Part shown: in pieces, positions 6,331 to 26,754 of the stretch | Layout: the number at the start of each line of letters is the position of its first letter | How positions within the stretch are numbered: position 1 is the stretch's first letter | Assembly: GCA_963666345.1 (NCBI GenBank) | Contig: OY762721.1 | Location: forward strand, 3,661,258-3,693,257 | Reading direction: 5' to 3' | Source: Desulfatiglandales bacterium | Lineage (GTDB): Bacteria > Desulfobacterota > DSM-4660 > Desulfatiglandales > Desulfatiglandaceae | DNA: 32,000 bases | Position numbers and translations under genes: made by a program | The notes under the pieces: model-generated | What the model saw: the letters and a program-made list of their open reading frames with translations, nothing else | Told to the model about the DNA's origin: nothing | Database searches by the model: none

Positions 6331-7299
6331 ATGATCAATAGAAAAACTGAAAAGAAAATTCAGCAGGCAACTGTAATCGGTGCTGGAGTTATGGGGCATG
6401 GTATAGCTCAGTTCCTTGCCTATAATGGTTTGAAGGTAACATTAGTTGATAATAATGAGAAAAATTTAGAGCAGGCAAAAAAATGGATTGATGACAACTT
6501 AAAAGTAATGGTTGATCTCGGAGAGATCAAAGAAACCGAAATTTCAAGTTTGTTGTCTAGAATTGTTTTCGCTACAGAATTGAGTGAAAGCATAAAAGGT
6601 TCTAAATACGTTTTAGAAGCAATTACTGAAAATTTGGAAATAAAGAAAAAGATATGGAAAATAATGGGAGAATATTCAGATGGCGATGCCATTTTGGCTT
6701 CAAATACATCATCATATGATATAAATGAACTTGGCAAAGGGGTTCCCAATGAGGAACGGGTTATTGGCACACATTGGTTCCACCCCCCACCCATTACGCC
6801 TTGTGTCGAGGTCATTCCTTCCGAAAAGACAAATGATAGCACGATTCACTTTGTAGTGGATTTTCTCAAGGATATAGGAAAAATTCCAACAAAATGCGAA
6901 AGCGCCCCAGGTTTTGTAGCTAATCGTCTCCAAATGGCACTAGCCGCAGAAGCAATCGCTTTGGTTGAAAATGGTCTTGCAACCCCAAATGAAGTAGATC
7001 AAATCGTAAAAACATCATTCGGCTTCCGTTTGAGTGCCTATGGCCCTTTTGAAATAATTGACCAAGCAGGAGCAGACACTTATCTAAGCATCTTTGAATA
7101 TCTTTATGAAAAATTGGGGAAAAAGCACTTTAAACCTCCTCGCCTTTTAACTGATCAGGTTAAGGCTGGTTGCTTAGGACTTAAAGTTTCAAAGGGTTTT
7201 TATGACTATACAGAAGGGGCTGCCGATTCTGTTAGGCGCAACCGTGATCGTAAGCTGTATGCAAGGCTAAGACTCTTTAATAAAGAGGCCATAGATTGA
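6331..7299 (+). CDS. 3-hydroxyacyl-CoA dehydrogenase family protein (Hbd-like)
   Basis: VIGAGVMGHGIAQ NAD-binding motif, SNTSS, HWFHPPP. Length of 322 aa is typical of 3-hydroxybutyryl-CoA dehydrogenases. Confidence 0.8.
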   Translation: MINRKTEKKIQQATVIGAGVMGHGIAQFLAYNGLKVTLVDNNEKNLEQAKKWIDDNLKVMVDLGEIKETEISSLLSRIVFATELSESIKGSKYVLEAITENLEIKKKIWKIMGEYSDGDAILASNTSSYDINELGKGVPNEERVIGTHWFHPPPITPCVEVIPSEKTNDSTIHFVVDFLKDIGKIPTKCESAPGFVANRLQMALAAEAIALVENGLATPNEVDQIVKTSFGFRLSAYGPFEIIDQAGADTYLSIFEYLYEKLGKKHFKPPRLLTDQVKAGCLGLKVSKGFYDYTEGAADSVRRNRDRKLYARLRLFNKEAID

Positions 7300-10529: not shown

Positions 10530-11051
10530 TCAGGCATCATGCGCTTTCCCCTTGGATTTTAAGCCCTGTTTGAAACTTTCCCAGAACTCCTTGTCATTGT
10601 CCTGCCACGCAGCCCCGAATCTTCTTTCAAAATAGGATGAAGGCAGTTTCTCCTGCCATTTTCCCCAGGGGTCTTCCCCCTTTTTCTTGGCCTCGATAAT
10701 GTCATTTATAAAAGAGGCGATATCCGCGATCTCATCTTTCGGTATATAGGAGTCTGCACCCTGTTTTATCGATTTTACCAGGTTGTCGGGCGTAAACGCA
10801 TGGGCTGTGAGCATGACGGCCGTTGTGCCTTTACTGTTGCAGATTTCAAGAAGTCGGTAACCGTTGACCCCCATGATATCAAGCACTGCTACGTCGAATT
10901 CCTCTTTTTCAAGCAGTTCCCGCGCCTCCTCAAACGTGGAGGCACTGACCACGTCACACATGAATAAAAGTTCTTCCAGTACCTGCAGAATGTCAGGTTC
11001 ATCATCGACTATCAAGACCCTTTTACCGTCAAGCAAAGCGGTTTCAGACAT
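10530..11051 (-). CDS. Single-domain response regulator (CheY-like receiver) with about 50-aa Trp-rich C-terminal tail
   Basis: VDDEPD acidic pocket, VAVLDIMG phospho-acceptor Asp context, YIPKDE conserved Lys. No recognisable DNA-binding output. GGAGGA RBS. Confidence 0.8.
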   Translation of the reverse strand: MSETALLDGKRVLIVDDEPDILQVLEELLFMCDVVSASTFEEARELLEKEEFDVAVLDIMGVNGYRLLEICNSKGTTAVMLTAHAFTPDNLVKSIKQGADSYIPKDEIADIASFINDIIEAKKKGEDPWGKWQEKLPSSYFERRFGAAWQDNDKEFWESFKQGLKSKGKAHDA

Positions 11052-11196: not shown

Positions 11197-12144
11197 TTAC
11201 CTCCTTCTTGCAAGTATCCTGTTCATGAGCGCCCCTATCCCCTGGGGCGTCATGTCTTTCGGGGTCAGCTTGAGGAGTATGTCCACAAATGCCCGGGCCG
11301 CCATTGAAAGATACTGCCCCTCCAAAAAGGCGATGCTCACGTCAAGAAATATCCTGCCTCCTTCAAGGGGCACGGTTGAAAGGCTTTTCCCCTTGAGCTC
11401 AAGGGCGACCGCCTCCTTTACCAGAAAGGAGATCCCTTCTCCCCTTTGAACCAGCTGTTTGATAAATTCCGTGTTGCTGGTATCCATGAGTATGTCGGGT
11501 GTGCAGCCGTTTCGAGTGAAAAGCTCGTTTACCAGCCTCCTAGTGCCTGATCCGGTCTCCTTCATGATGACCGGCTCTCTGGCCAGATCCCTTATGGAGA
11601 CGGTCTTTTCTGCGGCCAGCGGGTGATCAGGTGCGAGTATCACGACCAGCTCTTCCTCGCTGAAGGGAATGAAACGGACATCGGGGTTTTCCTCCGCCTT
11701 GGCGATGATGGCCACTTCGTTTTTGAAGTCCAGCAGGCTGTGAATCATGTCAAGGGAGCTTCCCTCATCCAGGTAGATCCTAACCTGAGGGTAGGTTTCA
11801 TGAAAACCGGTAAGAAGATAAGGCATGAAGTAGCGGGCATAGGTCTTTGTCGTTCCAAGCCTCAGGACTCCCCTTTTGAGTTCCTTCATCTCCTCTATCA
11901 GGTGCTCAAGGTCCCTTTCATAATCAAATACCTTTACGGCGTATTCAAAAAGTGTCTTACCCTCGTCCGTAAGATATATGCTGCGGCCCTTTCTCTTAAA
12001 GAGCTTGAAGCTGCAGTGTTCTTCAAGGAGCCTTATCTGGGCGGTAACGGCCGGCTGGGTGATGTATAGACTTTTGGCTGCAAGGGTAAAACTGAGGTGC
12101 CTTGCTGTGTGGTAAAAGACCCTGAGTTGATTGAAATTGATCAT
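11197..12144 (-). CDS. LysR-type transcriptional regulator
   Basis: N-terminal wHTH (LRVFYHTARHLSFTLAAKSLYITQPAVTAQIRLLE) plus a substrate-binding domain, 315 aa. Divergent from the pps-like genes. Confidence 0.9.
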   Translation of the reverse strand: MINFNQLRVFYHTARHLSFTLAAKSLYITQPAVTAQIRLLEEHCSFKLFKRKGRSIYLTDEGKTLFEYAVKVFDYERDLEHLIEEMKELKRGVLRLGTTKTYARYFMPYLLTGFHETYPQVRIYLDEGSSLDMIHSLLDFKNEVAIIAKAEENPDVRFIPFSEEELVVILAPDHPLAAEKTVSIRDLAREPVIMKETGSGTRRLVNELFTRNGCTPDILMDTSNTEFIKQLVQRGEGISFLVKEAVALELKGKSLSTVPLEGGRIFLDVSIAFLEGQYLSMAARAFVDILLKLTPKDMTPQGIGALMNRILARRR

Positions 12145-12830: not shown

Positions 12831-14690
12831 ATGGCAGATCAAAAGGCAGGAAGATTTCCGGATCCTCACGATTTCAAGGTGCCTCCCGGCCTGGAGGGCT
12901 GGGAAGAGATGTATCCATCGCACTATCTTTTTTCAAAGGAGAGGGGGGAATGGGAAAAGCAGCAGTTCTGGTATCAGGACAAGATTCATGCCCCTGAACC
13001 GGTGCCCCCCCTGGACCTGATCTTCCAGGAGGCCTGGCAGATCTCCCTTTCACAGTACACCACAAGGGTGTTCTGCATCCCCCCTGCCCAGGGAATCGCC
13101 CAGAGGATGGTCGGGTGCTACATGTACATCTGTGCCATCGCGCCGCCGCCCGATAAGGTTATCGGAGAAAAGGCGGCCCATTTCGAAAAGCGCGTTTTCT
13201 ACGTGTTCGAGCACTATGACGAACTGTGGGACAAGTGGCTCAACAAATTCAAGGCCCTCGGCAACGAGATGTCCGCGGTTGAGATCCCGGAGCAGATGCC
13301 CAAATTCGTGCCTGAAGATCAGGTGCTTCCCGCGCCCAGGGGCTACTACATATCCTATGACGTGATGGAGGCATTCGACAGGCTCGTAAACATGATGTTC
13401 AAGGGATGGCAGTACCACTTCGAGATGCTTAACCTCACTTATCTTGCCTACCTCATGTTCGGCGACGTATCAAGAAAGCTCTTTCCGGGAATCAGCGAGA
13501 GTGCCATCGGCAAGATGGTGGCAGGCGCCTATGTGTCGATGTTCAGGCCGGAGGAGGAGCTGTGCAGACTCGCAAGGCTAGCCTCTTCATCCCGCGGCGT
13601 TGCGGATATTCTGAAGACCGATATGTCGGTAGGGCAGAAGGTCTCCAAGCTTAACAAGATAACCGACGGCAAACACTGGCTGGAGGAGTTTGAGAAATCA
13701 AAGGACCCCTGGTTCTACGTGTCCTGCGGAAGCGGGTGGCTGCATCATGAGGGAAGCTGGATTACCAACCTTGAAATACCCTACAGCTATATAAAGGGCT
13801 ATGTGGAAAGCCTTGAAAGGGGCGAGAAGATCGAGCGCTCCCTTGACCAGATAGACAAAGAAAGGGACCAGATAGTAGAAGAGTACCGCAAACTGATCAA
13901 AACCGATGAAGACCGAAAATCGTTTGACGACGCCTACAAGACCATCCGGACCATATACCGGTACGCGGAGGATCATCTGTTCTGGGTGGAGCACTGGTTT
14001 CACACCATCTGGTATGAAAAGATAAGGAGATTCGGAAGCCTTCTCAAAGGAAACGGAATGCTCAACGAGGTGGACGATATATTCATGTTCACCCGCTATG
14101 AGATCCCGGAGATGCTGACCGAGCTTTCCACCGGCTGGGCCCTGGGAGTGGACATACCTTTAAGGGGCGATTTTTACAAGGCAAAGGCAAAAAAGAGGAG
14201 GAAGATCCTGGATGCTGCATCCGAATGGGCACCCACCCCCGCGCTCGGCGTACCACCCGAGGAGGTGGCGGAACCCTTCACGATCATGCTCTGGGGCGTG
14301 ACGACCGATAAGGTAAAGGAATGGCTCAAGGGTGTGGAGGTCCCGAAAGGAACTGAGATCAGCGAGATAAAGGGATTTGCGGCTTCGGCAGGGGCCGCGG
14401 AAGGTCCGGCCAGGGTGCTCAAGCTCTTAAAGGAGATCGTCGACATAAAACCGGGTGAGATTATCGTGTGCCCGTCGACCAATCCCTCGTGGGCGCCGGT
14501 GTTTACCAAGATCAAGGCGGCTGTCACGGACATCGGCGGGCTTACAAGTCATGCGGCCATAGTCTGCCGGGAATACGGAGTACCATCGGTCACGGGAACG
14601 GGAGTGGCCACATCCGTGATTAAAACCGGAGACATAATCAGGGTCGACGGAGACACAGGGCTGGTAACCATAGTGAAGCGGGCGCAGTGA
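12831..14690 (+). CDS. PEP-utilising-enzyme family protein with C-terminal swivelling phospho-His domain; phenylphosphate synthase alpha-subunit-like
   Basis: 619 aa (about 70 kDa). C-terminus GGLTSHAAIVCREYGVPSVTG carries the conserved T-S-H motif. No PPDK_N ATP-grasp domain; that is encoded by the next gene. GGAGGGGG RBS. Size and split architecture match Thauera PpsA and PpsB (70 and 40 kDa). Confidence 0.65.
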   Translation: MADQKAGRFPDPHDFKVPPGLEGWEEMYPSHYLFSKERGEWEKQQFWYQDKIHAPEPVPPLDLIFQEAWQISLSQYTTRVFCIPPAQGIAQRMVGCYMYICAIAPPPDKVIGEKAAHFEKRVFYVFEHYDELWDKWLNKFKALGNEMSAVEIPEQMPKFVPEDQVLPAPRGYYISYDVMEAFDRLVNMMFKGWQYHFEMLNLTYLAYLMFGDVSRKLFPGISESAIGKMVAGAYVSMFRPEEELCRLARLASSSRGVADILKTDMSVGQKVSKLNKITDGKHWLEEFEKSKDPWFYVSCGSGWLHHEGSWITNLEIPYSYIKGYVESLERGEKIERSLDQIDKERDQIVEEYRKLIKTDEDRKSFDDAYKTIRTIYRYAEDHLFWVEHWFHTIWYEKIRRFGSLLKGNGMLNEVDDIFMFTRYEIPEMLTELSTGWALGVDIPLRGDFYKAKAKKRRKILDAASEWAPTPALGVPPEEVAEPFTIMLWGVTTDKVKEWLKGVEVPKGTEISEIKGFAASAGAAEGPARVLKLLKEIVDIKPGEIIVCPSTNPSWAPVFTKIKAAVTDIGGLTSHAAIVCREYGVPSVTGTGVATSVIKTGDIIRVDGDTGLVTIVKRAQ

Positions 14691-14778: not shown

Positions 14779-15849
14779 ATGGAACATATACTCGGTTTTG
14801 AAAGACTTGACAGGGGTTCCCTCGCCCTTGTGGGGGGAAAGAACGCGAGCCTGGGTGAGATGATAAAAAGCGGGGTCCGCGTGCCTCCCGGTTTTGCCGT
14901 TACAACCGACAGTTATCTTGGTTTTATAACAAAGACCGGTATAAAGGAGAAGATCTATGAGGCCCTCGCAGGTCTTGATCCTGAGGATGTGGAATCGCTC
15001 GACCGGGCAAGCGGCAAGGCGCGCGGGCTTATCATGGATTCATCCATGACAAGGGAGGGGAGGGATGCAATCGCAGGCGGTTATAAAACACTGTGCCGGG
15101 ATTGCAATAAAGATTACCTGCCTGTGGCGGTCAGATCAAGCGCAACGGCCGAGGACCTCCCGACCGCCAGTTTCGCCGGCCAGCAGGATACATTCCTCTG
15201 GGTCCTTGGGGCGGATAAGGTCATAGGCAATGTCCAGGCCTGCTGGGCAAGCCTGTTTACCCCCCGTGCCGTCAGCTACAGGATTAGGAACAAGTTTTCC
15301 CATGAAAAGGTACTCATAAGCGTCGGTGTCCAGAAGATGGTCAATTCGAGGAGCGCCGGTGTCATGTTTACCCTCAATCCGACCAACGGGGACCCTTCAA
15401 AGGTGGTCATAGAGGCAAGCTGGGGGCTGGGCGAGACGGTTGTTTCAGGTTCGGTTAATCCGGACAAGTTCGTGGTGGACAAGGTGATGCTGGAGATCAA
15501 TGAAAGGGACATATCCAAAAAGCATATAGAATGCCTGTATGACCCGGATGAAAAAAAGGTGGTCAACATCGAGGTGGAGCCGGAAAGACAGCAGAAATGC
15601 TGCCTGGAGGGCCGTGAGGTAAGGGAACTGGCCAGACTGGCAAAGGAAATAGAGGTCCATTACGGATGCCCCATGGACATCGAGTGGGCCATAGAAGAAG
15701 ACGCGTCCTTTCCCGAGAACATATTTATCGTTCAGGCACGGCCCGAGACCGTCTGGAGCCGGAAGGAGTCAAAGCCCGTCATAGGGGCGAAGAGCGGCTA
15801 TCAGCTTTTGATGGAAAAGGCGATGACAAGGATAAAGCTGAGGACATGA
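14779..15849 (+). CDS. PEP synthase N-terminal (ATP-grasp, PPDK_N) domain protein; phenylphosphate synthase beta-subunit-like
   Basis: 356 aa (about 40 kDa). GGKNASLGEM and VAVRSSATAEDLPTASFAGQQDTFL motifs of pyruvate-phosphate-dikinase/PEP-synthase nucleotide-binding domains. Confidence 0.7.
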   Translation: MEHILGFERLDRGSLALVGGKNASLGEMIKSGVRVPPGFAVTTDSYLGFITKTGIKEKIYEALAGLDPEDVESLDRASGKARGLIMDSSMTREGRDAIAGGYKTLCRDCNKDYLPVAVRSSATAEDLPTASFAGQQDTFLWVLGADKVIGNVQACWASLFTPRAVSYRIRNKFSHEKVLISVGVQKMVNSRSAGVMFTLNPTNGDPSKVVIEASWGLGETVVSGSVNPDKFVVDKVMLEINERDISKKHIECLYDPDEKKVVNIEVEPERQQKCCLEGREVRELARLAKEIEVHYGCPMDIEWAIEEDASFPENIFIVQARPETVWSRKESKPVIGAKSGYQLLMEKAMTRIKLRT

Positions 15850-16063
15850 ATGAGATAAAATCCCCTTGTCCGATTAAGCTGGAGAAGAACCTTTTCAATA
15901 ATCCGGCATTCAGGGAAAACCAGGATAGAAGGATTTTGCATTTAAGGGTCATCTCCAAAAGAGTTGATTTAAATGAAGGAGTCTTTGCTCTTCTTATTCC
16001 TCGCTCAGTCCCACCCTTCGACAAGCTCAGGGCGGGTTCCCGGAAGGGGCCAAGGGTTCTAGG

Positions 16064-16273
16064 TATGGGAGGAAAACGAGTATAGAGTATGTGAGATTTC
16101 TCTATATTGCATATGGTTCAGTCTGTGAATCGGAAATTCGGGCCATGATATCAGCTGAATTGGGTTATTTGAAAGAAGTAAGGCTTCAGGAATTAAGGGG
16201 GAAAATCGGGGATGTCGAGACAATGCTCAAAGCGTTGATCAAATCCCCGGAAAGAAAACCCTCGAATCCTTGA
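16064..16273 (+). pseudogene. 5'-truncated four-helix-bundle protein gene fragment (C-terminal about 70 codons only)
   Basis: YGRKTSIEYVRFLYIAYGSVCESEIRAMISAELGYL... is homologous to codons 55 onward of the 8701..9102 gene. Upstream, homology is replaced by an 18-nt terminal-repeat-like sequence (16046-16063). Confidence 0.7.
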
Positions 16274-16359: not shown

Positions 16360-17760
16360 ATGAAAGACATGAGAGATTTTATCCAAGAGGCGGAAGCCCG
16401 GGGCCTGCTCCACAGGATAAAGGCCGAGGTGGACTGGAACCTTGAGCTGTCCCATATCGCAAAACTTAACGAGGAAAACCAGGGACCGGCACTGCTTTTC
16501 GAAAACGTCAAGGATTACGACTCCCCAGTCATCACGAGCGTGTGCACCACCACCGAAAGACTTGCCCTCATAATGGGCATGCCGGGGGAATCGTCCTTGG
16601 TGGACATCATGAGGATGTGGGTGGAGAAAAATGAAGACAGGATTCCCCCCAGATATGTGGACAATGCGCCGTGCAAGGAAAACATCATGATGGGTGATGA
16701 TGTGGATCTTTTCAGGTTTCCCGCGCCCAAGTTTTATCCGATGGACGGCGGGCGTTTTTTCGGTACCGCCCATTTCGTGGTCACAAAAGACCCTGATACC
16801 GGGTGGGTCAACCTTGGCACATACAGGCTCCAGCTCCTGGACAAAAATCATCTCGGAACCCAGTTCATAAAGGGAAAGCATGCGGATATCATGCTCAAGA
16901 AATACCAGAAGCTGAAGGAGCCGATGCCTGTTGCGGTAGTGGTGGGATGCGACCCGATACTCTTTCTGATGGGGGCCTCAAGGCTCTCGGCCTTTGAAAG
17001 TGAATATGATTTCGCAGGCTCCATAAGGGGTGAGGCAATAGATGTAATAAAGGCTGAGACAAACGACCTGCCGGTTCCGGCCACGGCCGAGATCGTGGTG
17101 GAAGGGGAGGTGGACGCGGACACATTCATGGACGAAGGCCCGTTCGGCGAGTACACAGGCTACTATTCAGGTGTGGGGACCGACCCGAGAAATTTCATAG
17201 ACGTAAAGTGCGTGACCCACAGGACAAATCCCGTGTTCTGGTCCACCACGGTGGGACGCGCGGTGACGGACACCCACATGACCATGGCGCTTACCTACGG
17301 CGCGACCCTGTGGCAGCAGCTTGTCGCCATGAAAATCCCCGGCATAAAGGCGGTCTACTGCCCGCCCGAGGGCTCGGGACGCTTTCTTGCCATAATTTCC
17401 ATGACCCAGATGTATCCGGGACACGCGGATCAGGTCCTTACCGCCGCCATATCGACCGAGATGGGCGCCTACGGCCTCAAGACCGTTATCGTGGTGGATG
17501 ATGATATCGACCCGTGGGATATATCAAGGGTCATGTATGCGCTCAGCTTCAGGTTTCAGCCTAACAGGAGTCAGGTAATAAAAAGAGGGAGGTCCACCCC
17601 GCTTGATCCTTCTCTTCCCTTAAACGCAAGGGAGATCACAGGCAGGCTCCTGCTGGACGCCACCATACCGTATGACTGGAAGGAAAAGCCGATCCCTATT
17701 GAGCTTGATCCGGAGCTGGTGGAAAAGATAAAGGGCCGATGGTCTGAACTGGGGTTTTAG
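16360..17760 (+). CDS. UbiD-family prFMN-dependent (de)carboxylase
   Basis: 466 aa. N-terminus MKDMRDFIQEAEARGLLHRIKAEVDWNLELSHI...GPALLFENVKDY is typical of UbiD-family enzymes. GGGAGG RBS. Size matches the phenylphosphate carboxylase alpha/beta-type subunits. Confidence 0.85.
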   Translation: MKDMRDFIQEAEARGLLHRIKAEVDWNLELSHIAKLNEENQGPALLFENVKDYDSPVITSVCTTTERLALIMGMPGESSLVDIMRMWVEKNEDRIPPRYVDNAPCKENIMMGDDVDLFRFPAPKFYPMDGGRFFGTAHFVVTKDPDTGWVNLGTYRLQLLDKNHLGTQFIKGKHADIMLKKYQKLKEPMPVAVVVGCDPILFLMGASRLSAFESEYDFAGSIRGEAIDVIKAETNDLPVPATAEIVVEGEVDADTFMDEGPFGEYTGYYSGVGTDPRNFIDVKCVTHRTNPVFWSTTVGRAVTDTHMTMALTYGATLWQQLVAMKIPGIKAVYCPPEGSGRFLAIISMTQMYPGHADQVLTAAISTEMGAYGLKTVIVVDDDIDPWDISRVMYALSFRFQPNRSQVIKRGRSTPLDPSLPLNAREITGRLLLDATIPYDWKEKPIPIELDPELVEKIKGRWSELGF

Positions 17761-17777: not shown

Positions 17778-19439
17778 ATGAAGCCTATCCGCTATGATCC
17801 GGAAGAGATAGAGAAAAATTTGAGGGAGGGTTTCTGGGATAAGACCATCCTGCCCGACTTTTGGGAGAAAAACGCCAGGCTGTGGCCTGACAGGGAGGCC
17901 CTTGTCGATTCCCTCGGATCCAGGCTGACCTGGGCCGAGGCCGCGCAGAGGATCGACAGGATCGCGTTCGGGCTTATAAAGGAGGCGGGTGTTAAGAGGG
18001 ATGACAGGCTCATGGTGCAGCTTCCTAACTGCGTGGAGCAGGTCCTTGTTCGCCTTGCCTGTGAAAAGGCGGGGGTCCTTTCCATACCCGAGATGACCAC
18101 CTTCAGGCAGACGGAGCTTGCGGACATCGCAAAAAGGACGGACGCGGCGGGCATGGTAATTGCCAGGAGCTACAGAAACTTCGACCACCATGAAATGGCA
18201 AGGGAACTTCAGGCTCAGCTGCCGGGACTCAGGCACATCATAGTGGCGGGGGACGACGTGCCTCAAGGCTGCATCTCGTTGAACGAGATCATGGCTCACC
18301 CATATGAGAAGGAGTTCGACATCCTGGAGCTTATCGCCAGGAAGCTTGACGCGGTGGAAGAGGTGGGCTTTCTTATCACGACCACCGGCACCACAGGCCT
18401 TCCGAAGCTTATCGAGCACAGGATAGCGGCGCGCGAGATCTGGACCGCAAGATCGCATGTGAAAAACTGGAAGCTCGGCCCTGATGACTGCGTGATCGCC
18501 ATCGCCCCGCTCGCAGGGGCCGCCGGGGGCACGCCCGCCTATGTTACGGCACCGGTGGGGGGAGCCAAAATCGCCCTTGAATACCAGTACAGGGGAGAGG
18601 AAACGCTCGCCTTCATGGAACAGGAGCGGGTCACGGTGATCGCCCTTGTGCCGACCCAGCTCGCAAGGCTGCTGGAACTTCCCACCGGCAAATATGACCT
18701 TTCATCTTTAAGGATAATAAAGACCGCCGGAGGGTACCTGCCGCCCCCGCTTGCAAAGGAGGCCCAGGAGAGGTTCAACTGCCCCATCCTCGGGACATAC
18801 GGCACGCAGGATACAGGTTCCATATCAGGGGTGCCGATCGACGCACCCGAGGACCTGAGAAACTTCACCGTTGGAAGGCTTCATCCGGGAATAGAGATAA
18901 AGATACTGGATGATGAGGGAAACCGGGTTGAAAAAGGGGGCGTGGGCACCCTATGGTTCAAGGGGCCGGGAAATTCGATCGGTTATTACAGGGATATAGA
19001 TAAAACCATGAACGAGGCCTTTGACAGGGACGGTTTTGCCACGCCCGGAGACCTTGTGGAGCTTATGGATGACGGTTATATCAAGATCATGGGCAGGAAG
19101 AAGAACATCATCATAAGGGGCGGGCAGAACATATATCCAAGGGAGATAGAGGACTATCTGCTGGCGCACGAAAAGGTCACTAACGCGGCCGTCGTTCCCA
19201 TGCCTGATCCTCAGATGGGTGAGAGGGCGTGCGCCTTTGTCACGGTCAAAAAGGGAGAGATGTTCCAATTCGAGGAGATGATCGCATATCTCAAGGAAAA
19301 GAAGATCGCTCCCTTTAAGCTGCCTGAAAGGCTCGAGGTACTCGACGCCCTTCCCCTGGTCGGGGAAAGCGGCAAGATAAACAACAAGGAAATGGTCAGG
19401 ATCATAACCGAGAAGCTTAAGGAGGAGGGGAAGATCTAA
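17778..19439 (+). CDS. AMP-binding acyl/aryl-CoA ligase (adenylate-forming enzyme)
   Basis: 553 aa with the ITTTGTTGLPKL AMP-binding motif and GDLV...GRKKNIIIRGGQNIYPREIE. 18 nt after the UbiD stop, with a GGGGGAG RBS. Confidence 0.85.
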   Translation: MKPIRYDPEEIEKNLREGFWDKTILPDFWEKNARLWPDREALVDSLGSRLTWAEAAQRIDRIAFGLIKEAGVKRDDRLMVQLPNCVEQVLVRLACEKAGVLSIPEMTTFRQTELADIAKRTDAAGMVIARSYRNFDHHEMARELQAQLPGLRHIIVAGDDVPQGCISLNEIMAHPYEKEFDILELIARKLDAVEEVGFLITTTGTTGLPKLIEHRIAAREIWTARSHVKNWKLGPDDCVIAIAPLAGAAGGTPAYVTAPVGGAKIALEYQYRGEETLAFMEQERVTVIALVPTQLARLLELPTGKYDLSSLRIIKTAGGYLPPPLAKEAQERFNCPILGTYGTQDTGSISGVPIDAPEDLRNFTVGRLHPGIEIKILDDEGNRVEKGGVGTLWFKGPGNSIGYYRDIDKTMNEAFDRDGFATPGDLVELMDDGYIKIMGRKKNIIIRGGQNIYPREIEDYLLAHEKVTNAAVVPMPDPQMGERACAFVTVKKGEMFQFEEMIAYLKEKKIAPFKLPERLEVLDALPLVGESGKINNKEMVRIITEKLKEEGKI

Positions 19440-19655
19440 CGGCCTCCCCGGTTCGGGAATATAGCCGTGGTGTAGGGTTATATGTTATAGGTTATTTGAA
19501 AATGAGTGAACAGAAGCCTTGTCTTCGGCTGCGTACTCTAGTTTTCCGGCAATCTTTCTAACCAATAACGAACAACCAGATGCCTAACCAGTGTGCCATT
19601 TTAAGGAAACGTGGGCAAACGAGTGGTTGCTCCATGCCAGGAAGGAATCCCCCCC

Positions 19656-20252
19656 ATGACCCATGACGGCAAAAGGCCCCTGATCCTCTTTGTATGCTGC
19701 GGAAACAGGGAAAGGAGCGTGATAGCGGAAAACCTTTTTAAAAAGATGCTGAAAAAGGGATATCCTGATTTATCAGACCGGGTGGATGCGGCCTCAGCCG
19801 GCATATTCCCCAGGTCATATTTAGAGCATGCAGGGGAAAACGGGGTCTTTTTCGAAGAACCTTTTTTTTCAAAAAAGGCCAATACCTATGCCGTGGATTA
19901 CCTCCTGAAAAAGGGGATAGACGTAGCATCATACAGGTCAAGGCGGATTAACTCAGGTCTTGTCACAGATGCCCTTCTCATACTTGCCGTAGATCGGGTG
20001 ATAAGGGATGAGATCCTTTTCTTTTATCCGGAGGTCCAAGGCAGGGTCCATACCCTCAGGGAGTTCGTGTTCGGCCCGGAAGGGGACCTCGATATAGGTG
20101 ATCCCATGAAACTGCCCGTTGTTGATAAGGACACCGGCGCCTGGATATGGCCTGACGAATACCCCGTGAGGTATATAAAGGAGATCGAGGAGAGCCTTGA
20201 AAAGGGAATGGTCAAGATAGTGGCTTACATAATGAGCGAGGGGATGGATTAG
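19656..20252 (+). CDS. Low-molecular-weight protein-tyrosine-phosphatase-like (LMW-PTP/ArsC fold) protein with internal insertion and C-terminal extension
   Basis: P-loop LILFVCCGNRERS fits V-C-x-G-N-x-x-R-S (CX5R-S). A DIGDP Asp-Pro loop is present. The only two Cys are in the P-loop, so there is no ArsC-type redox Cys pair. Start set at ATG 19656 (AGGAAGG upstream); the GTG at 19611 is possible. Confidence 0.65.
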   Translation: MTHDGKRPLILFVCCGNRERSVIAENLFKKMLKKGYPDLSDRVDAASAGIFPRSYLEHAGENGVFFEEPFFSKKANTYAVDYLLKKGIDVASYRSRRINSGLVTDALLILAVDRVIRDEILFFYPEVQGRVHTLREFVFGPEGDLDIGDPMKLPVVDKDTGAWIWPDEYPVRYIKEIEESLEKGMVKIVAYIMSEGMD

Positions 20253-20253
20253 A

Positions 20254-21492
20254 TTGAATAGAACAAAGGGTGCGATCATAGTTCTGGTAATGGCTGAGGA
20301 AAAATGGGTGGAGGCGAATTTTTTCCGTGCTCAAATTACCTCTCTCGGCCACAGGGCCGAGATCCTTGATATGGGCCTTACCGGAGGGCCTGCCGGGCCC
20401 TGCGCTATCGGACGGGAGGAGGTGATAGCGGCAGGCGGCACAGGCGTGGACGAGGCCTCTCTTATAACGGACAGGGGCAAGAGGATGCCCCTTATGATAA
20501 AGGGGGGGAGAAAAAAGGTAAAAGAGCTTTACGAACAGGGAATGCTCACAGGGGTCGTGAGCCTTGGGGGGACCACGGGGACCCAGATGGGGACCTCCAT
20601 CATGAAGGCGCTTCCATTCGGCGTTCCCAAGCTCGCGGTGTCAAGCACGGCATCGCTTAAGGGGTTCGCCTCAAGATACCTCGGTACATCGGATGTCTCG
20701 CTCATGCACACGGTGGTCGAGATCGCGGGGCTTAACCGGTTCATGAAAAACGCGCTTGCACGCGCGGCAGGGGCCGTGTGCGGCATGGTGGAGGGGGGGC
20801 TCAGGGAGCCTGTCGCGCCGGAACAGGGGGGTGTGAGTCCGGTTGTAGCCATGACCCACTTCGGGCCGTGCGAACATTGCGCGGTAAGGGTTCGAAATCT
20901 ACTTGAGGAGCGCGGTTACCAGGTGGTGGGTTTTTCCGCTGCCGGTATCGGGGATCGGGCCATGGAGGAGATAATCGAATCGGGCGGCGTCTTTTCTGCG
21001 GTCATAGATCTTGCCACGGGCGGGGTGGGTGAGGAACTGCTGGGATTTGCCAGGGCAGCGGGGGCCTCAAGGCTTGAGGCGGCGGGAAAAAAGGGGATAC
21101 CGCAGGTGATTGCCACAAGCGGGGTCAATTTCGGCTCCCCCTGGAAGTACAGGTACAAGCCTGAATATGAGTCAAGAAAAAAAATTGAGTATGACAGAGC
21201 CCGCACCTTTATAAGGCTCTCGCAAGACGAGTTGGTCCGGGTGGCGACCGTCATGGCGGAAAAGTTGAACCGCGCAGCGGGTCCGGTGAGGGTGGTAATC
21301 CCGCTTGGCGGGTGGTCATCCGTTGATAAGAAGGGAAGCTTCTTTTATGATGGTGAGGCGGATCAGGTATTTGTCGAGACGCTGGAAAGGGAATTGCGGG
21401 ACGATATCGAGGTCAGGGAAGTGGACGCGGACCTTGAGACGGATGAATTCGCAAAGGTTATCGTGGATTCGTTTCTGGAAATTATTTCGTAG
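20254..21492 (+). CDS. UPF0261 / Tm-1-like ATP-binding domain protein, paralog 2 (divergent N-terminal motif)
   Basis: 412 aa. Central SLGGTTGTQMGT and VPKLAVSST align with paralog 1. The N-terminal GTFDSKGEE of paralog 1 is replaced by VMAEEKWVE. The TTG start at 20254 is 1 nt after the upstream stop and is uncertain. Confidence 0.65.
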   Translation: MNRTKGAIIVLVMAEEKWVEANFFRAQITSLGHRAEILDMGLTGGPAGPCAIGREEVIAAGGTGVDEASLITDRGKRMPLMIKGGRKKVKELYEQGMLTGVVSLGGTTGTQMGTSIMKALPFGVPKLAVSSTASLKGFASRYLGTSDVSLMHTVVEIAGLNRFMKNALARAAGAVCGMVEGGLREPVAPEQGGVSPVVAMTHFGPCEHCAVRVRNLLEERGYQVVGFSAAGIGDRAMEEIIESGGVFSAVIDLATGGVGEELLGFARAAGASRLEAAGKKGIPQVIATSGVNFGSPWKYRYKPEYESRKKIEYDRARTFIRLSQDELVRVATVMAEKLNRAAGPVRVVIPLGGWSSVDKKGSFFYDGEADQVFVETLERELRDDIEVREVDADLETDEFAKVIVDSFLEIIS

Positions 21493-21537: not shown

Positions 21538-21921
21538 ATGGAATACAGGTTCATGACGCATGAGGGGTGCTATGATCTTGTGGCGAACGCAAGACTGGTG
21601 GGAGACGATCTGCTGGTTGCCATATGGGGCGGAGACAGGCCCCATATCGGCGCTGTATCCATGGCCCAGCCCAGGGCAAGCCTCAGGGACCCTTCAAAGC
21701 TGAGTGCTACTGCTTCCGTGTTCACGTATGTGGGGCACAAGGAGGACATTCTCGCAAAACCCGCTTCAGAGACCCTGGCCTCCGCCCTGAACAAGAAGGT
21801 GGTGGTAACGGCAGGTATCCACTGGGATGATATGGAAGAAAAGGGCATTAAAAGGGTGATAAAAAACTGTGAGATTCTGATCGGGATGATTGTAAAGGAG
21901 TTTTCATCTTCAAAAAGCTGA
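21538..21921 (+). CDS. Small UbiD/UbiX-associated protein, possibly LpdD-like prenylated-flavin chaperone
   Basis: 127 aa, WGGDRPHIGAVSMAQP motif. Sits immediately upstream of ubiX. The family assignment comes from memory of LpdD-type proteins and from context only. Confidence 0.35.
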   Translation: MEYRFMTHEGCYDLVANARLVGDDLLVAIWGGDRPHIGAVSMAQPRASLRDPSKLSATASVFTYVGHKEDILAKPASETLASALNKKVVVTAGIHWDDMEEKGIKRVIKNCEILIGMIVKEFSSSKS

Positions 21922-21950: not shown

Positions 21951-22523
21951 ATGAAAAAAAGACTCATTATCGCGATAACCGGCGCAAGCGGTGTGATTTA
22001 CGGTGTGAGGATGCTCGAACTGATAAGGGAACACGGCTTTGAGACGCATCTTATAATATCAGAGGCGGGCAAGAAGAATATCGAGATCGAGACAGGCTTT
22101 AAGCTCAGGGATATAAAGGCGCTTGCCGATTACAGCCATGAAAACATGGACGTGGGGGCCCCGCTTGCAAGCGGCTCGTTTCTGACGGGGGGTATGGTGG
22201 TGGTGCCCTGTACCATCAAGACCCTGTCAGGGATTACCAATTCCTACAACGACAACCTGATCGTGAGGGCGGCAGACGTCACGTTAAAGGAGGGGCGCAA
22301 GCTGGTGCTGGTTGTAAGGGAGACCCCTCTTCACAAGGGGCATCTGAGACTCATGACCATGGCGGCCGATGTGGGCGCCCACATACTTCCCCCGGTCCCA
22401 TCCTTTTATAACAAGCCTGAAACCATCGACGACATAATCAATCAGACCATAGGAAAGATCTTCGACTACCTGGGCGTGGAGCACGATCTGTTTGCCCGCT
22501 GGGGAAGATATGACTCATGCTGA
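21951..22523 (+). CDS. ubiX: UbiX-family flavin prenyltransferase
   Basis: MKKRLIIAITGASGVIYGVRMLE... and VVPCTIKTLSGI motifs. About 190 aa. Start set at ATG 21951, with GGGGGA 11 nt upstream. Confidence 0.9.
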   Translation: MKKRLIIAITGASGVIYGVRMLELIREHGFETHLIISEAGKKNIEIETGFKLRDIKALADYSHENMDVGAPLASGSFLTGGMVVVPCTIKTLSGITNSYNDNLIVRAADVTLKEGRKLVLVVRETPLHKGHLRLMTMAADVGAHILPPVPSFYNKPETIDDIINQTIGKIFDYLGVEHDLFARWGRYDSC

Positions 22524-22537: not shown

Positions 22538-22849
22538 TCATAAAAACAGACTTGCAATGGATGGGACCCGCTCGGCAATTTTGACCGCTATTTGACCGAG
22601 CTTTTCTATCTGCGCCTTGAGTTGTGCCTGAGACAGGTTGACCCTTGAGGCCTCCTTTACAACGGTGATGAGTTCATCATATTTTTCAAGGTCCGTGGTA
22701 TCCGGCGTGATTGTGTCCACCTCGGCACGCGAGAGACCTTCCAGTTCGTTAAGCTGATCCTTGTATATCCCCTTAAATACCTCCCGTCCCTTTTCAAGGG
22801 TTTCTTCAAGGTCCGCCTCAAATCCTTCAAGATCAAAATCATCCGACAT
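22538..22849 (-). CDS. Hypothetical small acidic protein
   Basis: 103 aa, Asp/Glu-rich N-terminus. Starts 3 nt after the stop of the upstream gene 22853..23602, implying co-transcription. No recognisable motif. Confidence 0.5.
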   Translation of the reverse strand: MSDDFDLEGFEADLEETLEKGREVFKGIYKDQLNELEGLSRAEVDTITPDTTDLEKYDELITVVKEASRVNLSQAQLKAQIEKLGQIAVKIAERVPSIASLFL

Positions 22850-22852
22850 CTC

Positions 22853-23602
22853 TTATCCCTCCTTATTGCCTTTGCCGATATTATCCTTAAGTTCGTTTAT
22901 TGCCGACTTTAGATCAATGGCAAACTCCTCCGCCTTTTTGATCTTGTCATCGGCCTTCTCGGCCGTCTCAACAAGGGTTCCGATCCTCTCGGATGCCCGG
23001 GCCAGCGTGTCGCCGATATCCTTTCCGAGGTCTCGTTCAACCCCGATCTTATCCAGCAGTTCTGCCTGTGTCTCATGCACCTTTGCAACAGAGGAAAGAT
23101 GACCGGTCACAATCGAATTGGCATAATGAATCTGCTGGTAGGCCCGGTCTATGGAGCCTGTCACCTCTTTTTCCTGCGCCTTGAGCGGGTCGAGCAGCTC
23201 ACTGCGCATCGCCTCCACATCTTGTCTGATCTTGCCCACCATTATAGCCATGCCCTTTAGGACATTTTCCTGAAGTTTCGGGGAGGCATCCGGCTTGAAT
23301 GCAGCGTTTATCGCAAGAAGTAGAGACCTCTTCCTTTCCTTTTCCTTCGAACTTCTTGCCAGTTCCCACTGGCGGTTCATGGCGTTTCCGATCTGAAAGG
23401 GTGCGTAAACGTCGTCTATGAAGCGGTTCACGTCACGCCTCATCCTTGTGAAAAATAACTGTGCAAGCTCTCGATGTGCCTTGTAAACCACCGTAAGGTC
23501 CCGGCCGACCGTTGCTGAAAGCTCAACCGACTCCTTGGGAACCTGGGCGCATGAGCAGAAAATGAGGAAGGATATAAAAATGAATATCGACCTGCGTGGC
23601 AT
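22853..23602 (-). CDS. Hypothetical exported or lipoprotein-like coiled-coil protein
   Basis: 249 aa. N-terminal hydrophobic signal (MPRRSIFIFISFLIFCSCAQ) with a non-canonical Cys-containing end. The rest is helical and charged. GGAGG RBS. Confidence 0.55.
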   Translation of the reverse strand: MPRRSIFIFISFLIFCSCAQVPKESVELSATVGRDLTVVYKAHRELAQLFFTRMRRDVNRFIDDVYAPFQIGNAMNRQWELARSSKEKERKRSLLLAINAAFKPDASPKLQENVLKGMAIMVGKIRQDVEAMRSELLDPLKAQEKEVTGSIDRAYQQIHYANSIVTGHLSSVAKVHETQAELLDKIGVERDLGKDIGDTLARASERIGTLVETAEKADDKIKKAEEFAIDLKSAINELKDNIGKGNKEG

Positions 23603-23668
23603 CTCAATTCCTCCTTTTGTGGTGCTTCAAAAGTTGTGTTCAACTGTTAGGCATGATCGGGTAAAATC

Positions 23669-24079
23669 CTATTTGTGCGCGAATGCCCATGAAAAAGAGA
23701 TGCCGAATTCTTCCTTTCCGCCCACCCTGACCGCCGTTAGAAAGGCGGAGGCCAACCACTTTTTCATGCCCGCCTTGGTGACAAGGTCGCTGTAGAACTT
23801 GGCGTCCACACGCTTTTTTTCAGGGTCATTGCCCGGGTCCCCGTAGGCGTAACAGAGGTCATGGGGCAGGCAGCATTTATAGGTGATATCCTTCCAGTCA
23901 CAGCCGGTAAAAAGACCCATTACCCTGTCGGGAAGCATGGAGCAGCCATCAAAGGTCCAGTCTTTGTAGTCGTCCGGTTTCGATTCGATCCTGTCAACCA
24001 GGTAATCGAGATCAAAATGGCGGCACAGCTCAAGTGCCGCGCGAGCGTTCATGACCTCTCCTATTTCAGGCAGATCCAT
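23669..24079 (-). CDS. Phospholipase A2-like protein (CCxxHDxCY motif)
   Basis: 136 aa. YKCCLPHDLCYAYG matches the secreted-PLA2 catalytic His-Asp signature CCxxHDxCY. An upstream FDGCSMLPD could be a Ca-loop analogue. No signal peptide is seen. The assignment is motif-level only. Confidence 0.45.
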   Translation of the reverse strand: MDLPEIGEVMNARAALELCRHFDLDYLVDRIESKPDDYKDWTFDGCSMLPDRVMGLFTGCDWKDITYKCCLPHDLCYAYGDPGNDPEKKRVDAKFYSDLVTKAGMKKWLASAFLTAVRVGGKEEFGISFSWAFAHK

Positions 24080-24304
24080 TTTCCCTCCTCTTGTTTCAAT
24101 AGCTTTTCAGCATGTCCGTTACCAGAACCAGGTTTGCCCTGGCAGCCATCTGAAATCGGTAACGGTCTGTCTTTTCAAACCCTGTTTCAGACTCAAGGTG
24201 GCGGCTTTCATTATCCCTGCTCGCTGCGGTCTGTTTGCAATGGCGTATGTCACATAAAAGTGAAAGTCCTTTTCCATCTCCAGCTCATTTCCGCCTCAGG
24301 GCCT

Positions 24305-25531
24305 TTATATGGTGTGAAGACTGTCCTTTGCCTTTTTAAGCCTTTCTATGGCAAGGCTTCCACTTATGATGCAGTATGCGTTTTCAAGATACGCGGCATT
24401 AAGCCCGGTTGTCTCGGCAAGCCTTCCAAGCCTTTCCTCTTGTCCCAGGATCTTGAAACCGAGGATGGTCCTTACCCCTGCCGCCCTCAGCTTTGCCGCG
24501 TCCGAGCCGAACTGGAGGCAGAGCCTTCCCTGAAGCATCCAGTCGACAAGTTCCCTCGGCTTGAACGGGGTGTTGAGTATCAGCTCAATGAGGCTTGCCT
24601 TTACAAGGTTCTGCACGTTGTCGATCCCCTGCTCAAAGAACCTCTCCTTGTGGTAGGAGGTTATGCCCTCGAGCAGGTCGAGGGGAAGCCTTGAGGCCCT
24701 CTGCTCCGGCCTGCTTGCCGAGAATTTGAAGCGCTCCGCCATGTAGGTAAGGGCGCGCTGGGGGAAAAAGCCTATAAGAAACGAGATCACAGGGAGCATA
24801 TCCGTCAATGTATCGTCAGGCACCAGGTCCACCCTGATTTCGCCCGACATGAGCTCACCTGATGGTAGGGCCGAGATAAAGTAGTAGAATATGAGCGAGA
24901 CAAAGGTGCTCAGCACCATCCTGACACCCACCCCGTAATAGGCGGCAGGAGGAAGATCTATGGTGATAAGGCGTCTCAGGATGTAGCGTATCGACCATAT
25001 GTAGGCGCCGAGGAATGCTATGAGCATGGAAAGAAGCGCCGGCGAACAGGTAAGATCCGATCCGTCATGCTCGAGCACGAGCTTCGGCACGGAAAGGAGC
25101 CTTTTCCCTCCCTCGCAGAACATGAGGCAGAAGGCCATTAGGCTGAATATGGTCACAAACAGGAGGGGCAGGGCATAGTCCCACTGGCTGTACCTTCTGT
25201 CCGACACGATCAGGGTATGGGCATCTTCAATGTCCACGTTCTTAAGATTCTCTATTATCCTTTCGTGCTCGATCTCTTTTCTTGGAAGTCGAAGTGTGCG
25301 GTATGATACGAATGTAAAGGGTAGAAAAGAGATGAGAAGGACAATTCCCGCGTAGAAATACCAGCTCTCGGTAAAGGCCGCCACATTGGATGTCTTGACG
25401 TTGAGATAAACGATTAAAACAAGGGTTGCAAGGGTGAGCCCGAGCAGAAAGGCGAATGTCTTCCCACGCCTTTTTATGATCCCGGGCCGGTCTTTTTCCT
25501 TTTTCTGGCTCTCTTCAGGTAAGCTGTCCAT
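24305..25531 (-). CDS. Hypothetical polytopic membrane protein (about 6 TM) with about 140-aa C-terminal soluble helical domain
   Basis: 408 aa with hydrophobic segments throughout the first 270 aa. The C-terminal LPLDLLEGITSYHKERFFEQGIDNVQNLV looks helix-hairpin-helix-like. GGAGG RBS. Confidence 0.6.
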   Translation of the reverse strand: MDSLPEESQKKEKDRPGIIKRRGKTFAFLLGLTLATLVLIVYLNVKTSNVAAFTESWYFYAGIVLLISFLPFTFVSYRTLRLPRKEIEHERIIENLKNVDIEDAHTLIVSDRRYSQWDYALPLLFVTIFSLMAFCLMFCEGGKRLLSVPKLVLEHDGSDLTCSPALLSMLIAFLGAYIWSIRYILRRLITIDLPPAAYYGVGVRMVLSTFVSLIFYYFISALPSGELMSGEIRVDLVPDDTLTDMLPVISFLIGFFPQRALTYMAERFKFSASRPEQRASRLPLDLLEGITSYHKERFFEQGIDNVQNLVKASLIELILNTPFKPRELVDWMLQGRLCLQFGSDAAKLRAAGVRTILGFKILGQEERLGRLAETTGLNAAYLENAYCIISGSLAIERLKKAKDSLHTI

Positions 25532-26085: not shown

Positions 26086-26095
26086 GGAGTGAACC

Positions 26096-26335
26096 ATGGA
26101 AAAAGTAGGAGCATATGAGGCCAAGACGCACCTGCCCAAGTTGCTTGAACGGGTGATGAAAGGGGAACGCATCACAATCACAAAACATGGTATCCCTGTC
26201 GCGGTACTCCAGTCGCCTGATCCTGAAAAAATGGTGAATACCGAATCGGTTATCGCCGAAATCCGTGAATTGCGGGACATGCATCGGCTTGACGGCGTCT
26301 CAATCCGTGAGATGATTGATGAAGGAAGAAGATGA
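26096..26335 (+). CDS. Type II antitoxin, Phd/YefM-like
   Basis: 79 aa. MEKVGAYEAKTHLPKLLERVMKGERITITKHGIPVAVL is a typical Phd/YefM-type N-terminal fold. It overlaps the toxin gene by 4 nt (ATGA). Confidence 0.8.
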   Translation: MEKVGAYEAKTHLPKLLERVMKGERITITKHGIPVAVLQSPDPEKMVNTESVIAEIRELRDMHRLDGVSIREMIDEGRR

Positions 26336-26754
26336 TAATGGGCTCCTTTGTGGTGGATAATTCAATTGTGATGTCATGGTGTTTTAAAGATGAGGCAAAT
26401 CAATATGCCGATGCGGTGCTGGATTTTCTTTCCGAGGCAACCGCCTTTGTCCCGTCGATCTGGCCGTTTGAAGTAGTAAATGTATTGCTGGTGGCGGAGC
26501 GTCGAAAACGCCTCAGCGAAGCGGACAGCGTCCGGTTTATGACACTGTTGTCGCATCTGCCGATAGTTGTGGAATATGAACGTCCGGAAAGGACGATGAA
26601 GGATCTCCTGGCACTTGCAAGATCCAATAACCTTTCAAGCTATGACGCCTCCTATCTCGATCTTTCCATGAGAAAGGGCATTCCCATTGCCACATCGGAC
26701 AGACGGCTGATAGAGGCCTCAAAAAGGATCGATGTCCCGATTCTTGAAATTTGA
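26332..26754 (+). CDS. vapC: Type II toxin, VapC (PIN domain) ribonuclease
   Basis: 140 aa. N-terminal FVVDNS acidic residue, central E (WPFEV), C-terminal ATSDRRL. PIN-domain spacing. Coupled to the upstream antitoxin. Confidence 0.8.
   Translation: MIMGSFVVDNSIVMSWCFKDEANQYADAVLDFLSEATAFVPSIWPFEVVNVLLVAERRKRLSEADSVRFMTLLSHLPIVVEYERPERTMKDLLALARSNNLSSYDASYLDLSMRKGIPIATSDRRLIEASKRIDVPILEI

Follow-up and report, generated by a model that had tools for sequence, protein, structure and literature searches.

The stretch of DNA analysed here, 32,000 nucleotides from a Desulfatiglandales bacterium (assembly GCA_963666345.1, contig OY762721.1, positions 3,661,258 to 3,693,257 of the forward strand; 'the window' below), carries at 19656-20252 a gene for a protein of the low-molecular-weight protein tyrosine phosphatase (LMW-PTP) type. 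This protein belongs to an undescribed LMW-PTP branch, distinguished by the P-loop CCGNRERS and by two insertions, and the branch is confined to anaerobic phenol/aniline-type aryl carboxylation operons built around a UbiD-type carboxylase. The phosphatase gene is optional in the UbiD cluster. Judged from its sequence, the product is probably an active small cysteine phosphatase with an intact catalytic apparatus. The reading that we favour, at a probability of about 45%, is an accessory enzyme that hydrolyses a small aryl phosphate, or an aryl phosphoamidate, arising within the pathway. It is a known kind of enzyme in a new metabolic context.

The predicted protein

The open reading frame (ORF) gives a stop-free translation of 198 codons and was called independently by metagenome annotators at the identical locus (L030, 11879-12475; L032, 5866-6462). 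Other assemblies of the same lineage have 209- to 220-aa versions of the gene with upstream starts; homologues start ∼18 residues ahead of the P-loop, in keeping with the ATG at 19656. The Pfam LMWPc profile (PF01451) matched with E = 4.4e-15 and 56.6 bits (cut-off 23.2) and was the sole Pfam match at E ≤ 1. An AlphaFold2 (AF2) model made from a 33-sequence alignment (pLDDT 89.2, pTM 0.88) has the four-stranded parallel alpha/beta fold of LMW-PTPs, and Foldseek against the PDB gave a probability of 1.0 and target-normalised TM values of 0.75-0.82 to many LMW-PTP structures, with 4PIC the best. An earlier note, made on this DNA without database searches, had called the protein an LMW-PTP-type phosphatase, and this assignment was borne out by the profile, the model and the structural search. 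The features of the gene are as follows.

19656-20252, + strand: LMW-PTP-like cysteine phosphatase gene, 198 aa (ORF, Pfam, alignment, AF2, Foldseek)
19695-19718, + strand: P-loop codons C14-C15-G16-N17-R18-E19-R20-S21 (CX5R-S), aligning to the YwlE P-loop; C14 is the predicted nucleophile
19818-19868, + strand: clade-specific insertion 1, residues ∼55-71, after the SAG motif (17-residue gap against YwlE 4PIC)
20091-20105, + strand: D146-I-G-D149-P150 loop; D149 is the predicted general acid and aligns with YwlE Asp118-Pro
20106-20159, + strand: clade-specific insertion 2, residues ∼151-168, between the DP loop and the last helix (alignment and AF2)

The P-loop, V13-C14-C15-G16-N17-R18-E19-R20-S21 (VCCGNRERS), conforms to the LMW-PTP signature C-X5-R-(S/T) with the conserved Asn (N17), and is unchanged in 29/29 family members in which the N-terminus is present. 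The SAG motif (S47-A-G) is also present. Alignment to YwlE, together with this invariance, confirmed the earlier reading of an intact CX5R-S P-loop and of DIGDP as the general-acid loop. Residue 149 is Asp in 28 of 33 members and Asn in the other five. The only cysteines of the window protein are C14 and C15, as had been noted. A further Cys stands at position 180 in 31/33 clade members, in the last helix (motif EIEQC), where the window protein and its 90% relative have Ser (nt 20193-20195); the clade Cys180 may have a redox or regulatory role.

The two insertions set the protein apart. The earlier note had described an insertion after SAG and a C-terminal extension; the first stands, at ∼17 aa, and the second is better described as an internal insertion of ∼18 aa before the last helix, since the usual terminal helix of the AF2 model (H169-194) follows it. 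Insertion 1 takes the place of the short variable loop of canonical LMW-PTPs and has invariant Y55, P69 and F71, while insertion 2 has invariant W163, W165 and P166. The invariant aromatics assigned to the two insertions (Y55, F71, Y78, W163 and W165) would fit a pocket for a small aromatic molecule.

Delimitation of the clade

A search of 5.8 billion proteins found ∼125 relatives of ∼200 aa with 50-61% identity, besides a 90%-identity cluster in which the window protein itself sits. All members of the clade are sequences from metagenomes or metagenome-assembled genomes (MAGs). When HMMER was run over 1.84 billion 50%-identity representatives, one clade representative scored E = 6e-99 and the next matches 1e-46 and weaker; because of this gap, the clade is sharply delimited. 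Its invariant positions are the P-loop FVCCGNRERS, S47, A48, G49, D113, I147, G148, W163, W165 and P166. A search of the literature for work tying an LMW-PTP to phenylphosphate or to UbiD clusters found no earlier description.

The best matches among characterized proteins are YwlE-type LMW phosphatases of B. subtilis and G. stearothermophilus (4PIC, 4KK3, 4ETN) and the LMW-PTP of T. tengcongensis (4EGS), with hidden Markov model (HMM) E-values of 3e-13 to 7e-12, a Foldseek E of 2e-9 and 26-28% identity. The window protein and YwlE have in common the fold, the CX5R-S P-loop, the SAG motif and the D-P general-acid loop. However, the P-loop reads CCGNRERS in place of the CTGNTCRS of YwlE, with Arg for Thr, the His of the YwlE H-R-S motif is Tyr93, and the window protein has the 17-aa insertion after SAG and the ∼18-aa insertion after DP. 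The settings also differ, that of the window protein being a catabolic operon and that of YwlE stress and protein quality control. Fuhrmann et al. reportedly found in 2013 that the P-loop Thr of CTGNTCRS confers phosphoarginine (pArg) specificity in YwlE. Identity with the protein arginine phosphatase YwlE was rejected, as Arg18 sits where the pArg-specificity Thr would be and overall identity is ∼26%.

The classical LMW-PTPs (bovine and human ACP1, Wzb/Etp, MPtpA), which hydrolyse aryl phosphates, share PF01451 with the window protein and presumably its Cys-phosphate chemistry. Unlike them, it has no aromatic DPYY wall, and neither a partner tyrosine kinase nor capsule genes are among the scanned ORFs of the window. 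A phosphotyrosine-specific LMW-PTP (Wzb/Etp/ACP1) was rejected on the grounds that MKLPVV follows DP, that the 17-aa insertion stands in for the variable loop, and that the NCBIfam Wzb/Etp equivalogs score only 18-19 bits against cut-offs of 243-247. With these scores, and with no tyrosine kinase among the scanned window ORFs, the orthology to a capsule or tyrosine-kinase-associated phosphatase that would have spoken against the earlier proposal was not found. The earlier exclusion of a thioredoxin-coupled ArsC likewise held: the pI258-type ArsC model TIGR02691 scored 24.6 bits, far under its cut-off of 174.3, there are no equivalents of Cys82 and Cys89, and the clade Cys180 lies in the last helix. 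A HAD/KdsC-like fold, as in the Thauera phosphatase subunit PpcD discussed below, was rejected since LMWPc is the only Pfam match and the predicted fold is that of LMW-PTPs; no HAD-type model was among the NCBIfam matches.

Beyond the clade, distant relatives of ∼190 aa (P0124, P0126, P0130) have short or unrelated contexts in which no UbiD link was seen, and only the core clade and the divergent P0122 show the association with UbiD. P0123, which ranked fourth among the representatives, was rejected as a close relative, as its score sums five tandem LMWPc repeats and does not reflect kinship. P0123 (1679 aa; L027 18-5057, GCA_044450935.1) and P0263 (2197 aa) are natural dikinase-LMWPc fusions, in which the His-swivel domain of phosphoenolpyruvate (PEP) utilisers and PPDK_N ATP-binding domains are joined to two to five tandem LMWPc domains. 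One LMWPc repeat in these fusions has no Cys, and the gene after P0123 in L027 encodes another giant dikinase of 2040 aa.

Gene context across the clade

Clade members with flanking sequence were taken from metagenomes and from 17 GTDB species genomes, and the window proteins were mapped onto them by tblastn. The genomes are MAGs of Desulfatiglandales, Desulfobacteraceae, Thermodesulfobacteriota, Acidobacteriota, Dehalococcoidia and Syntrophus; relatives on genome contigs were not returned by a single-protein query and were recovered by an alignment query. In 28/28 informative clade loci, the phosphatase gene lies within the same type of UbiD operon. The shared cluster comprises a Pps-like dikinase and/or UPF0261 paralogues, a UbiD of the beta type, an aryl-coenzyme A (aryl-CoA) ligase, LpdD and UbiX, and UbiD was found in every long locus. 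Co-occurrence with UbiD or pps genes beyond the window had been set beforehand as a test of the earlier note, and the outcome was clearly positive, with the loci coming from MAGs of Desulfobacterota, Acidobacteriota and Dehalococcoidia.

The immediate neighbours of the gene are nearly constant. On the upstream side, the ligase adjoins the phosphatase gene in 24 of the 26 loci whose flank reaches that far, the exceptions being L018, with a UPF0261 gene instead, and a pseudogene in L023. On the downstream side, the adjoining gene is a UPF0261 paralogue wherever a flank is present (25 loci), the L023 pseudogene excepted. The phosphatase gene never adjoins UbiD, and its constant partners are the ligase and the UPF0261 paralogue termed UPF0261_b. 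The same arrangement is seen for the divergent P0122 (L024; P-loop FVCYANRERS). The phosphatase, UPF0261_b, LpdD (not in every case) and UbiX genes are contiguous and in this order in the window and in L001, L013, L018 and L021. In L003, L015 and L035 the phosphatase gene is five genes away from UbiX-LpdD, yet still between the ligase and UPF0261_b.

In the window, the phosphatase gene belongs to a (+)-strand operon that runs from the PpsA-like gene to UbiX. A divergently transcribed LysR regulator precedes this operon, and a second UPF0261 gene and the receiver-domain gene lie just upstream. The genes are the following.

9320-10510, + strand: UPF0261 paralogue 'a', with MarK-like motifs (GTFDSKGEE; FHANGTGG)
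10530-11051, - strand: stand-alone receiver-domain protein, 63-66% identity in most clusters
11197-12144, - strand: LysR-type regulator, divergently transcribed and cluster-conserved
12831-14690, + strand: PpsA/PasA-like dikinase subunit with His-swivel domain
14779-15849, + strand: PpsB/PasB-like ATP-binding dikinase subunit
16360-17760, + strand: UbiD-family (de)carboxylase (NCBIfam phenylphosphate carboxylase beta, TIGR02724, 502 against a cut-off of 469)
17778-19439, + strand: AMP-forming aryl-acid CoA ligase (DHB-AMP-ligase-like), 553 aa, 76-85% identical across clusters
20254-21492, + strand: UPF0261 paralogue 'b' (UPF0261_b; MarK/Tm-1 family), divergent
21538-21921, + strand: LpdD-type chaperone binding reduced prenylated flavin mononucleotide (prFMNH2) (PF21758)
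21951-22523, + strand: UbiX flavin prenyltransferase

LpdD is a prFMNH2 chaperone of UbiD enzymes (PMC10865409). UPF0261_b starts 1 nt after the phosphatase stop codon. On the other side, the spacer between the ligase and the phosphatase (19440-19655) is 216 bp in the window lineage and 29-65 bp in other lineages; a scan of it found no sigma-70-like promoter, no terminator-like site and no credible Rfam family. Scans of the window covered most ORFs of at least 100 aa, and among these there was no HAD/PpcD-like gene, no tyrosine kinase, no capsule or ars gene, and no BY-kinase or McsB-like kinase.

Clusters without an intact copy

Sampling from the ligase side covered four lineages only, two with the phosphatase gene (the window lineage and L035) and two without it (L033/L034, from Desulfatiglandaceae MAGs, and L036-L038, from Desulfobacteraceae bacterium 4484_190.3); a ligase scan of metagenome contigs returned a single locus. 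The L033/L034 proteins are 87% (UbiD), 83% (PpsA) and 80% (ligase) identical to those of the window. In both gene-less groups UPF0261_b directly follows the ligase, and tblastn shows no phosphatase remnant. L001 and L036 are collinear at 83-91% nucleotide identity and differ by two clean indels, one the phosphatase gene and the other a gene for a 200-aa HD-domain (phosphohydrolase-type) protein between UPF0261_b and LpdD (L001 11826-12513 against L036 11861-12005). Both genes are present in L001 and both absent from L036, while the window has the phosphatase gene and no HD-domain gene.

A Syntrophus MAG carries a pseudogene (L023 10001-10581) with a TAG stop within the P-loop (CCGNS*RS) and a 1-nt frameshift. 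It adjoins a LysR gene, apart from the ligase, and in a related assembly the NCBI gene call starts beyond the P-loop. A selenocysteine reading of the in-frame stop was rejected, as the codon is TAG and not TGA.

Desulfatiglans anilini was compared through locus-tag order and annotations in a published supplementary table. Its phenol-induced module comprises 02056 (UbiX), 02057 (UPF0261), 02058 ('DHB-AMP ligase') and 02059 (Ppc-beta2) (PMC7500099 supplement; PMC6114531), and its aniline-induced module 03868 (PasB), 03869 (UPF0261), 03870 (ligase), 03871 (PasA) and 03872 (UbiD) (PMC7500099 supplement). These phe and ani modules share with the window UbiD, the ∼550-aa AMP-ligase, UPF0261 and the Pps/Pas dikinase, but have no LMW-PTP-like gene between ligase and UPF0261, which carry consecutive tags (02057/02058 and 03869/03870). 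In vitro, two UbiD-type subunits sufficed for the carboxylation of phenylphosphoamidate, and phenylphosphate was not accepted (PMC7500099).

The earlier suggestion of a non-orthologous replacement, if taken to mean an obligate carboxylase subunit, was therefore not supported: L033/L034, L036-L038 and D. anilini do without the gene, L023 has a pseudogene, and the gene's neighbours are not UbiD. A PpcD-like role is possible in those genomes that have it.

UPF0261 paralogues and kinase supply

UPF0261 is the family of the aromatic kinase MarK, which phosphorylates phenolic hydroxyls and converts ATP to ADP (PMC12624787). The UbiD clusters contain two kinds of UPF0261 protein, a canonical one (GT.DSKG, FHANGTGG) and a divergent one. 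The divergent kind has G-D for the G-G of the FHANGTGG motif, often has VMAEEKW at the ATP site, and mostly has no equivalent of MarK His219, which hydrogen-bonds the phenolic oxygen, with Ser, Thr or Pro in its place. UPF0261_b of the window has VMAEEKW for GT.DSKG and Ser for His219 (FSAAGIGD) and keeps the conserved Lys.

No Pps genes were seen on the contigs of L013, L016, L017 and L006, nor on that of L019. UPF0261 copies, beside UbiD, the ligase and the phosphatase, number three in L013 and L019 and two in L016; the short contigs of L017 and L006 show one each. In the Pps-less clusters, kinases of the MarK type, which turn ATP into ADP, may take over from the costlier dikinase, which turns it into AMP and phosphate. 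The D. anilini UPF0261 genes 02057 and 03869 appear as phenol- and aniline-induced in the proteome table and are not discussed in that paper (PMC7500099). UPF0261 proteins, canonical and degenerate, are a core element of anaerobic phenol/aniline carboxylation modules, which may matter as much as the phosphatase or more.

Proposed function and alternatives

Three things point to a small-molecule substrate: the catalytic apparatus, the setting in this operon, and the lack of a protein-kinase partner among the scanned ORFs. The near-identical operons that have no phosphatase gene point to an auxiliary role and not to an obligate subunit. By the chemistry of the family, Cys14 would attack the phosphorus of the aryl phosphate or aryl phosphoamidate while the P-loop backbone amides and Arg20 held the phosphate; Asp149 would protonate the leaving phenol or aniline, and the Cys14-phosphate intermediate would be hydrolysed last. 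The substrate would most likely be a small phosphorylated aromatic produced by the kinases of the cluster, whether the Pps-like dikinase or the MarK-type UPF0261. The enzyme could dephosphorylate a pathway intermediate, or a re-phosphorylated carboxylated product (such as 4-phosphooxybenzoate or its CoA ester), or it could clear off-target aryl phosphates made by promiscuous kinases.

That the gene is so strictly paired with one for a kinase-family protein is reminiscent of the acetovanillone route, in which a kinase, a carboxylase and the phosphatase HpeD/AcvF act in turn (PMC9618137). HpeD, a NagD-like member of the HAD enzymes, acts preferentially on the product that is both carboxylated and phosphorylated (PMC9618137). 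In that route an aryl kinase (the HpeHI/AcvAB dikinase or MarK/UPF0261), carboxylase, phosphatase and CoA ligase are clustered (PMC9618137; PMC12624787), and the window phosphatase is likewise clustered with a member of an aryl kinase family, a carboxylase and a CoA ligase. The carboxylases differ, however: that of the HpeD/AcvF pathway requires biotin and carboxylates the side chain, which leaves the phosphate in place, whereas that of the window is a prFMN-dependent UbiD.

Several points weigh against such an auxiliary hydrolase. The closest solved relatives are protein phosphatases, namely the arginine phosphatase YwlE and bacterial LMW-PTPs. A free aryl-phosphate phosphatase next to an aryl kinase would risk a futile ATP cycle, and specificity or a complex must be assumed. 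D149 is Asn in 5/33 members, which would cripple hydrolysis of poor leaving groups. The predicted remodelling of both specificity-determining walls of the LMW-PTP cleft by insertions 1 and 2 is read from sequence position only. To our knowledge, no UbiD-type pathway for phenol or aniline has ever been seen to form a carboxylated product that carries a phosphate.

The main competitor, which we consider unlikely, is the one suggested in the earlier note, a non-orthologous replacement of PpcD; acting as a functional carboxylase subunit, it would dock on UbiD, strip phenylphosphate of its phosphoryl group and present the phenolate, still bound, for carboxylation in the para position. PpcD, the delta subunit of Thauera aromatica, is a phosphatase-type protein encoded with a UbiD-type phenylphosphate carboxylase and a candidate for phenolate release (PMC6114531). 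The window UbiD is of the phenylphosphate carboxylase beta type, and a beta-type UbiD is always encoded with the clade phosphatase. The scanned window ORFs contain no HAD/PpcD-like gene, and clusters of strict anaerobes generally have neither delta nor gamma subunits (PMC6114531). Cell-free extracts of D. anilini gave no demonstrable phenylphosphate carboxylase activity (PMC6114531), the two-UbiD system of this species took phenylphosphoamidate and not phenylphosphate (PMC7500099), and the D149N variants would release phenolate unprotonated. PpcD, however, is a HAD/KdsC-like enzyme with an Asp nucleophile and a metal, unrelated in fold to the Cys-dependent window protein, and is required for carboxylation in Thauera; the window-type gene appears dispensable, being absent from clusters that are 85-90% identical in DNA, from two further lineages and from both D. 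anilini modules, and a pseudogene in one lineage. It is also paired with the ligase and UPF0261_b and never lies beside UbiD. The argument from absence is softened by the caveat that gene-less genomes could use a HAD phosphatase encoded elsewhere, but overall an obligate PpcD replacement is less likely than an auxiliary role. Slightly less probable again is a regulatory or repair protein phosphatase whose target would be the phospho-His swivel of the dikinase, UPF0261, the orphan receiver or proteins N-phosphorylated by phosphoamidate. The nearest structures, YwlE arginine (P-N) phosphatases and bacterial LMW-PTPs, would suit it, as would the conserved receiver-domain protein, the natural fusions of LMWPc to His-swivel dikinases (P0123, P0263) and the optional presence of the gene, which suits a modulatory role. 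But the specificity Thr of the YwlE P-loop is Arg in the window protein, which also lacks the aromatic DPYY wall of phosphotyrosine phosphatases, and the scanned ORFs include no BY-kinase or McsB-like kinase. The phospho-His of PpsA in particular fits poorly as a target, as the phosphatase is kept in L013, L016, L017 and L006, with no Pps genes on their contigs.

Two further explanations start from the gene's downstream neighbours. UbiX needs dimethylallyl phosphate (DMAP), which bacteria with the methylerythritol phosphate (MEP) pathway must derive from dimethylallyl diphosphate (DMAPP) or prenol. The phosphatase might accordingly convert DMAPP to DMAP, or trim other phosphates, for prenylated flavin synthesis by UbiX, as part of a sub-module with UPF0261_b, LpdD and UbiX. 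The contiguous order of these genes in the window and four other loci would agree with this, and an optional booster of the cofactor would suit the pattern of presence and absence. We think it improbable, as the gene keeps its place between ligase and UPF0261_b in the three loci where UbiX-LpdD is five genes away, and we know of no LMW-PTP-family enzyme that acts on allylic diphosphates. Least probable, at only a slight chance, is a phosphoryl carrier in which Cys14, phosphorylated by an aryl phosphate or by the His~P of the dikinase, would hand the phosphoryl group on, for example to ADP via UPF0261_b. Its attractions are the strict pairing and start/stop juxtaposition with a UPF0261_b that has kept the Lys but not the phenol-binding His, the D149N variants, which would stabilise Cys~P, and the existence of dikinase-LMWPc fusions. 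The Cys~P carriers of the phosphotransferase system (PTS), EIIB, share the LMW-PTP fold. However, the idea is inference throughout, 85% of members retain Asp149, as expected of a hydrolase, and we know of no precedent in the LMW-PTP family. A relay version, in which the phosphatase would hand phenolate to the single-subunit UbiD and the phosphoryl group to ADP via the degenerate UPF0261, is equally far-fetched; if true, energy-limited anaerobes would recover part of the ATP spent on phenol activation.

The clade bears on two questions about strict anaerobes: how a lone UbiD-type subunit can carboxylate phenylphosphate when the gamma and delta subunits of the Thauera enzyme are missing, and how the cells meet the expense in ATP (PMC6114531). 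Its members may supply the dephosphorylation that these systems lack, or may clean up after promiscuous aryl kinases and so limit the losses that these cause. Such an enzyme would be a rare recruitment of the LMW-PTP fold to small-molecule catabolism.

Other features of the window

The receiver-domain protein at 10530-11051(-) has 173 aa and no DNA-binding domain, and no histidine kinase lies near it; aryl phosphoamidates could conceivably serve as small-molecule phosphodonors to this orphan receiver. Between the PpsB-like gene and UbiD there is a 79-aa ORF (15846-16085) that metagenome annotators called in the window lineage; it has no Pfam match, and the corresponding gap in L001 is too short to hold such an ORF. 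Upstream of the cluster (891-7299) are a TctCBA tripartite transporter, a sulfatase-family protein (4057-5445), a short-chain dehydrogenase/reductase (SDR) and a 3-hydroxyacyl-CoA dehydrogenase. It is conceivable that the 4057-5445 protein is an aryl-sulfatase that supplies phenols to the cluster. Downstream of the operon, four minus-strand ORFs with no assigned function (22538-25531) are followed by a PhdYeFM antitoxin and PIN toxin pair (∼26095-26754).

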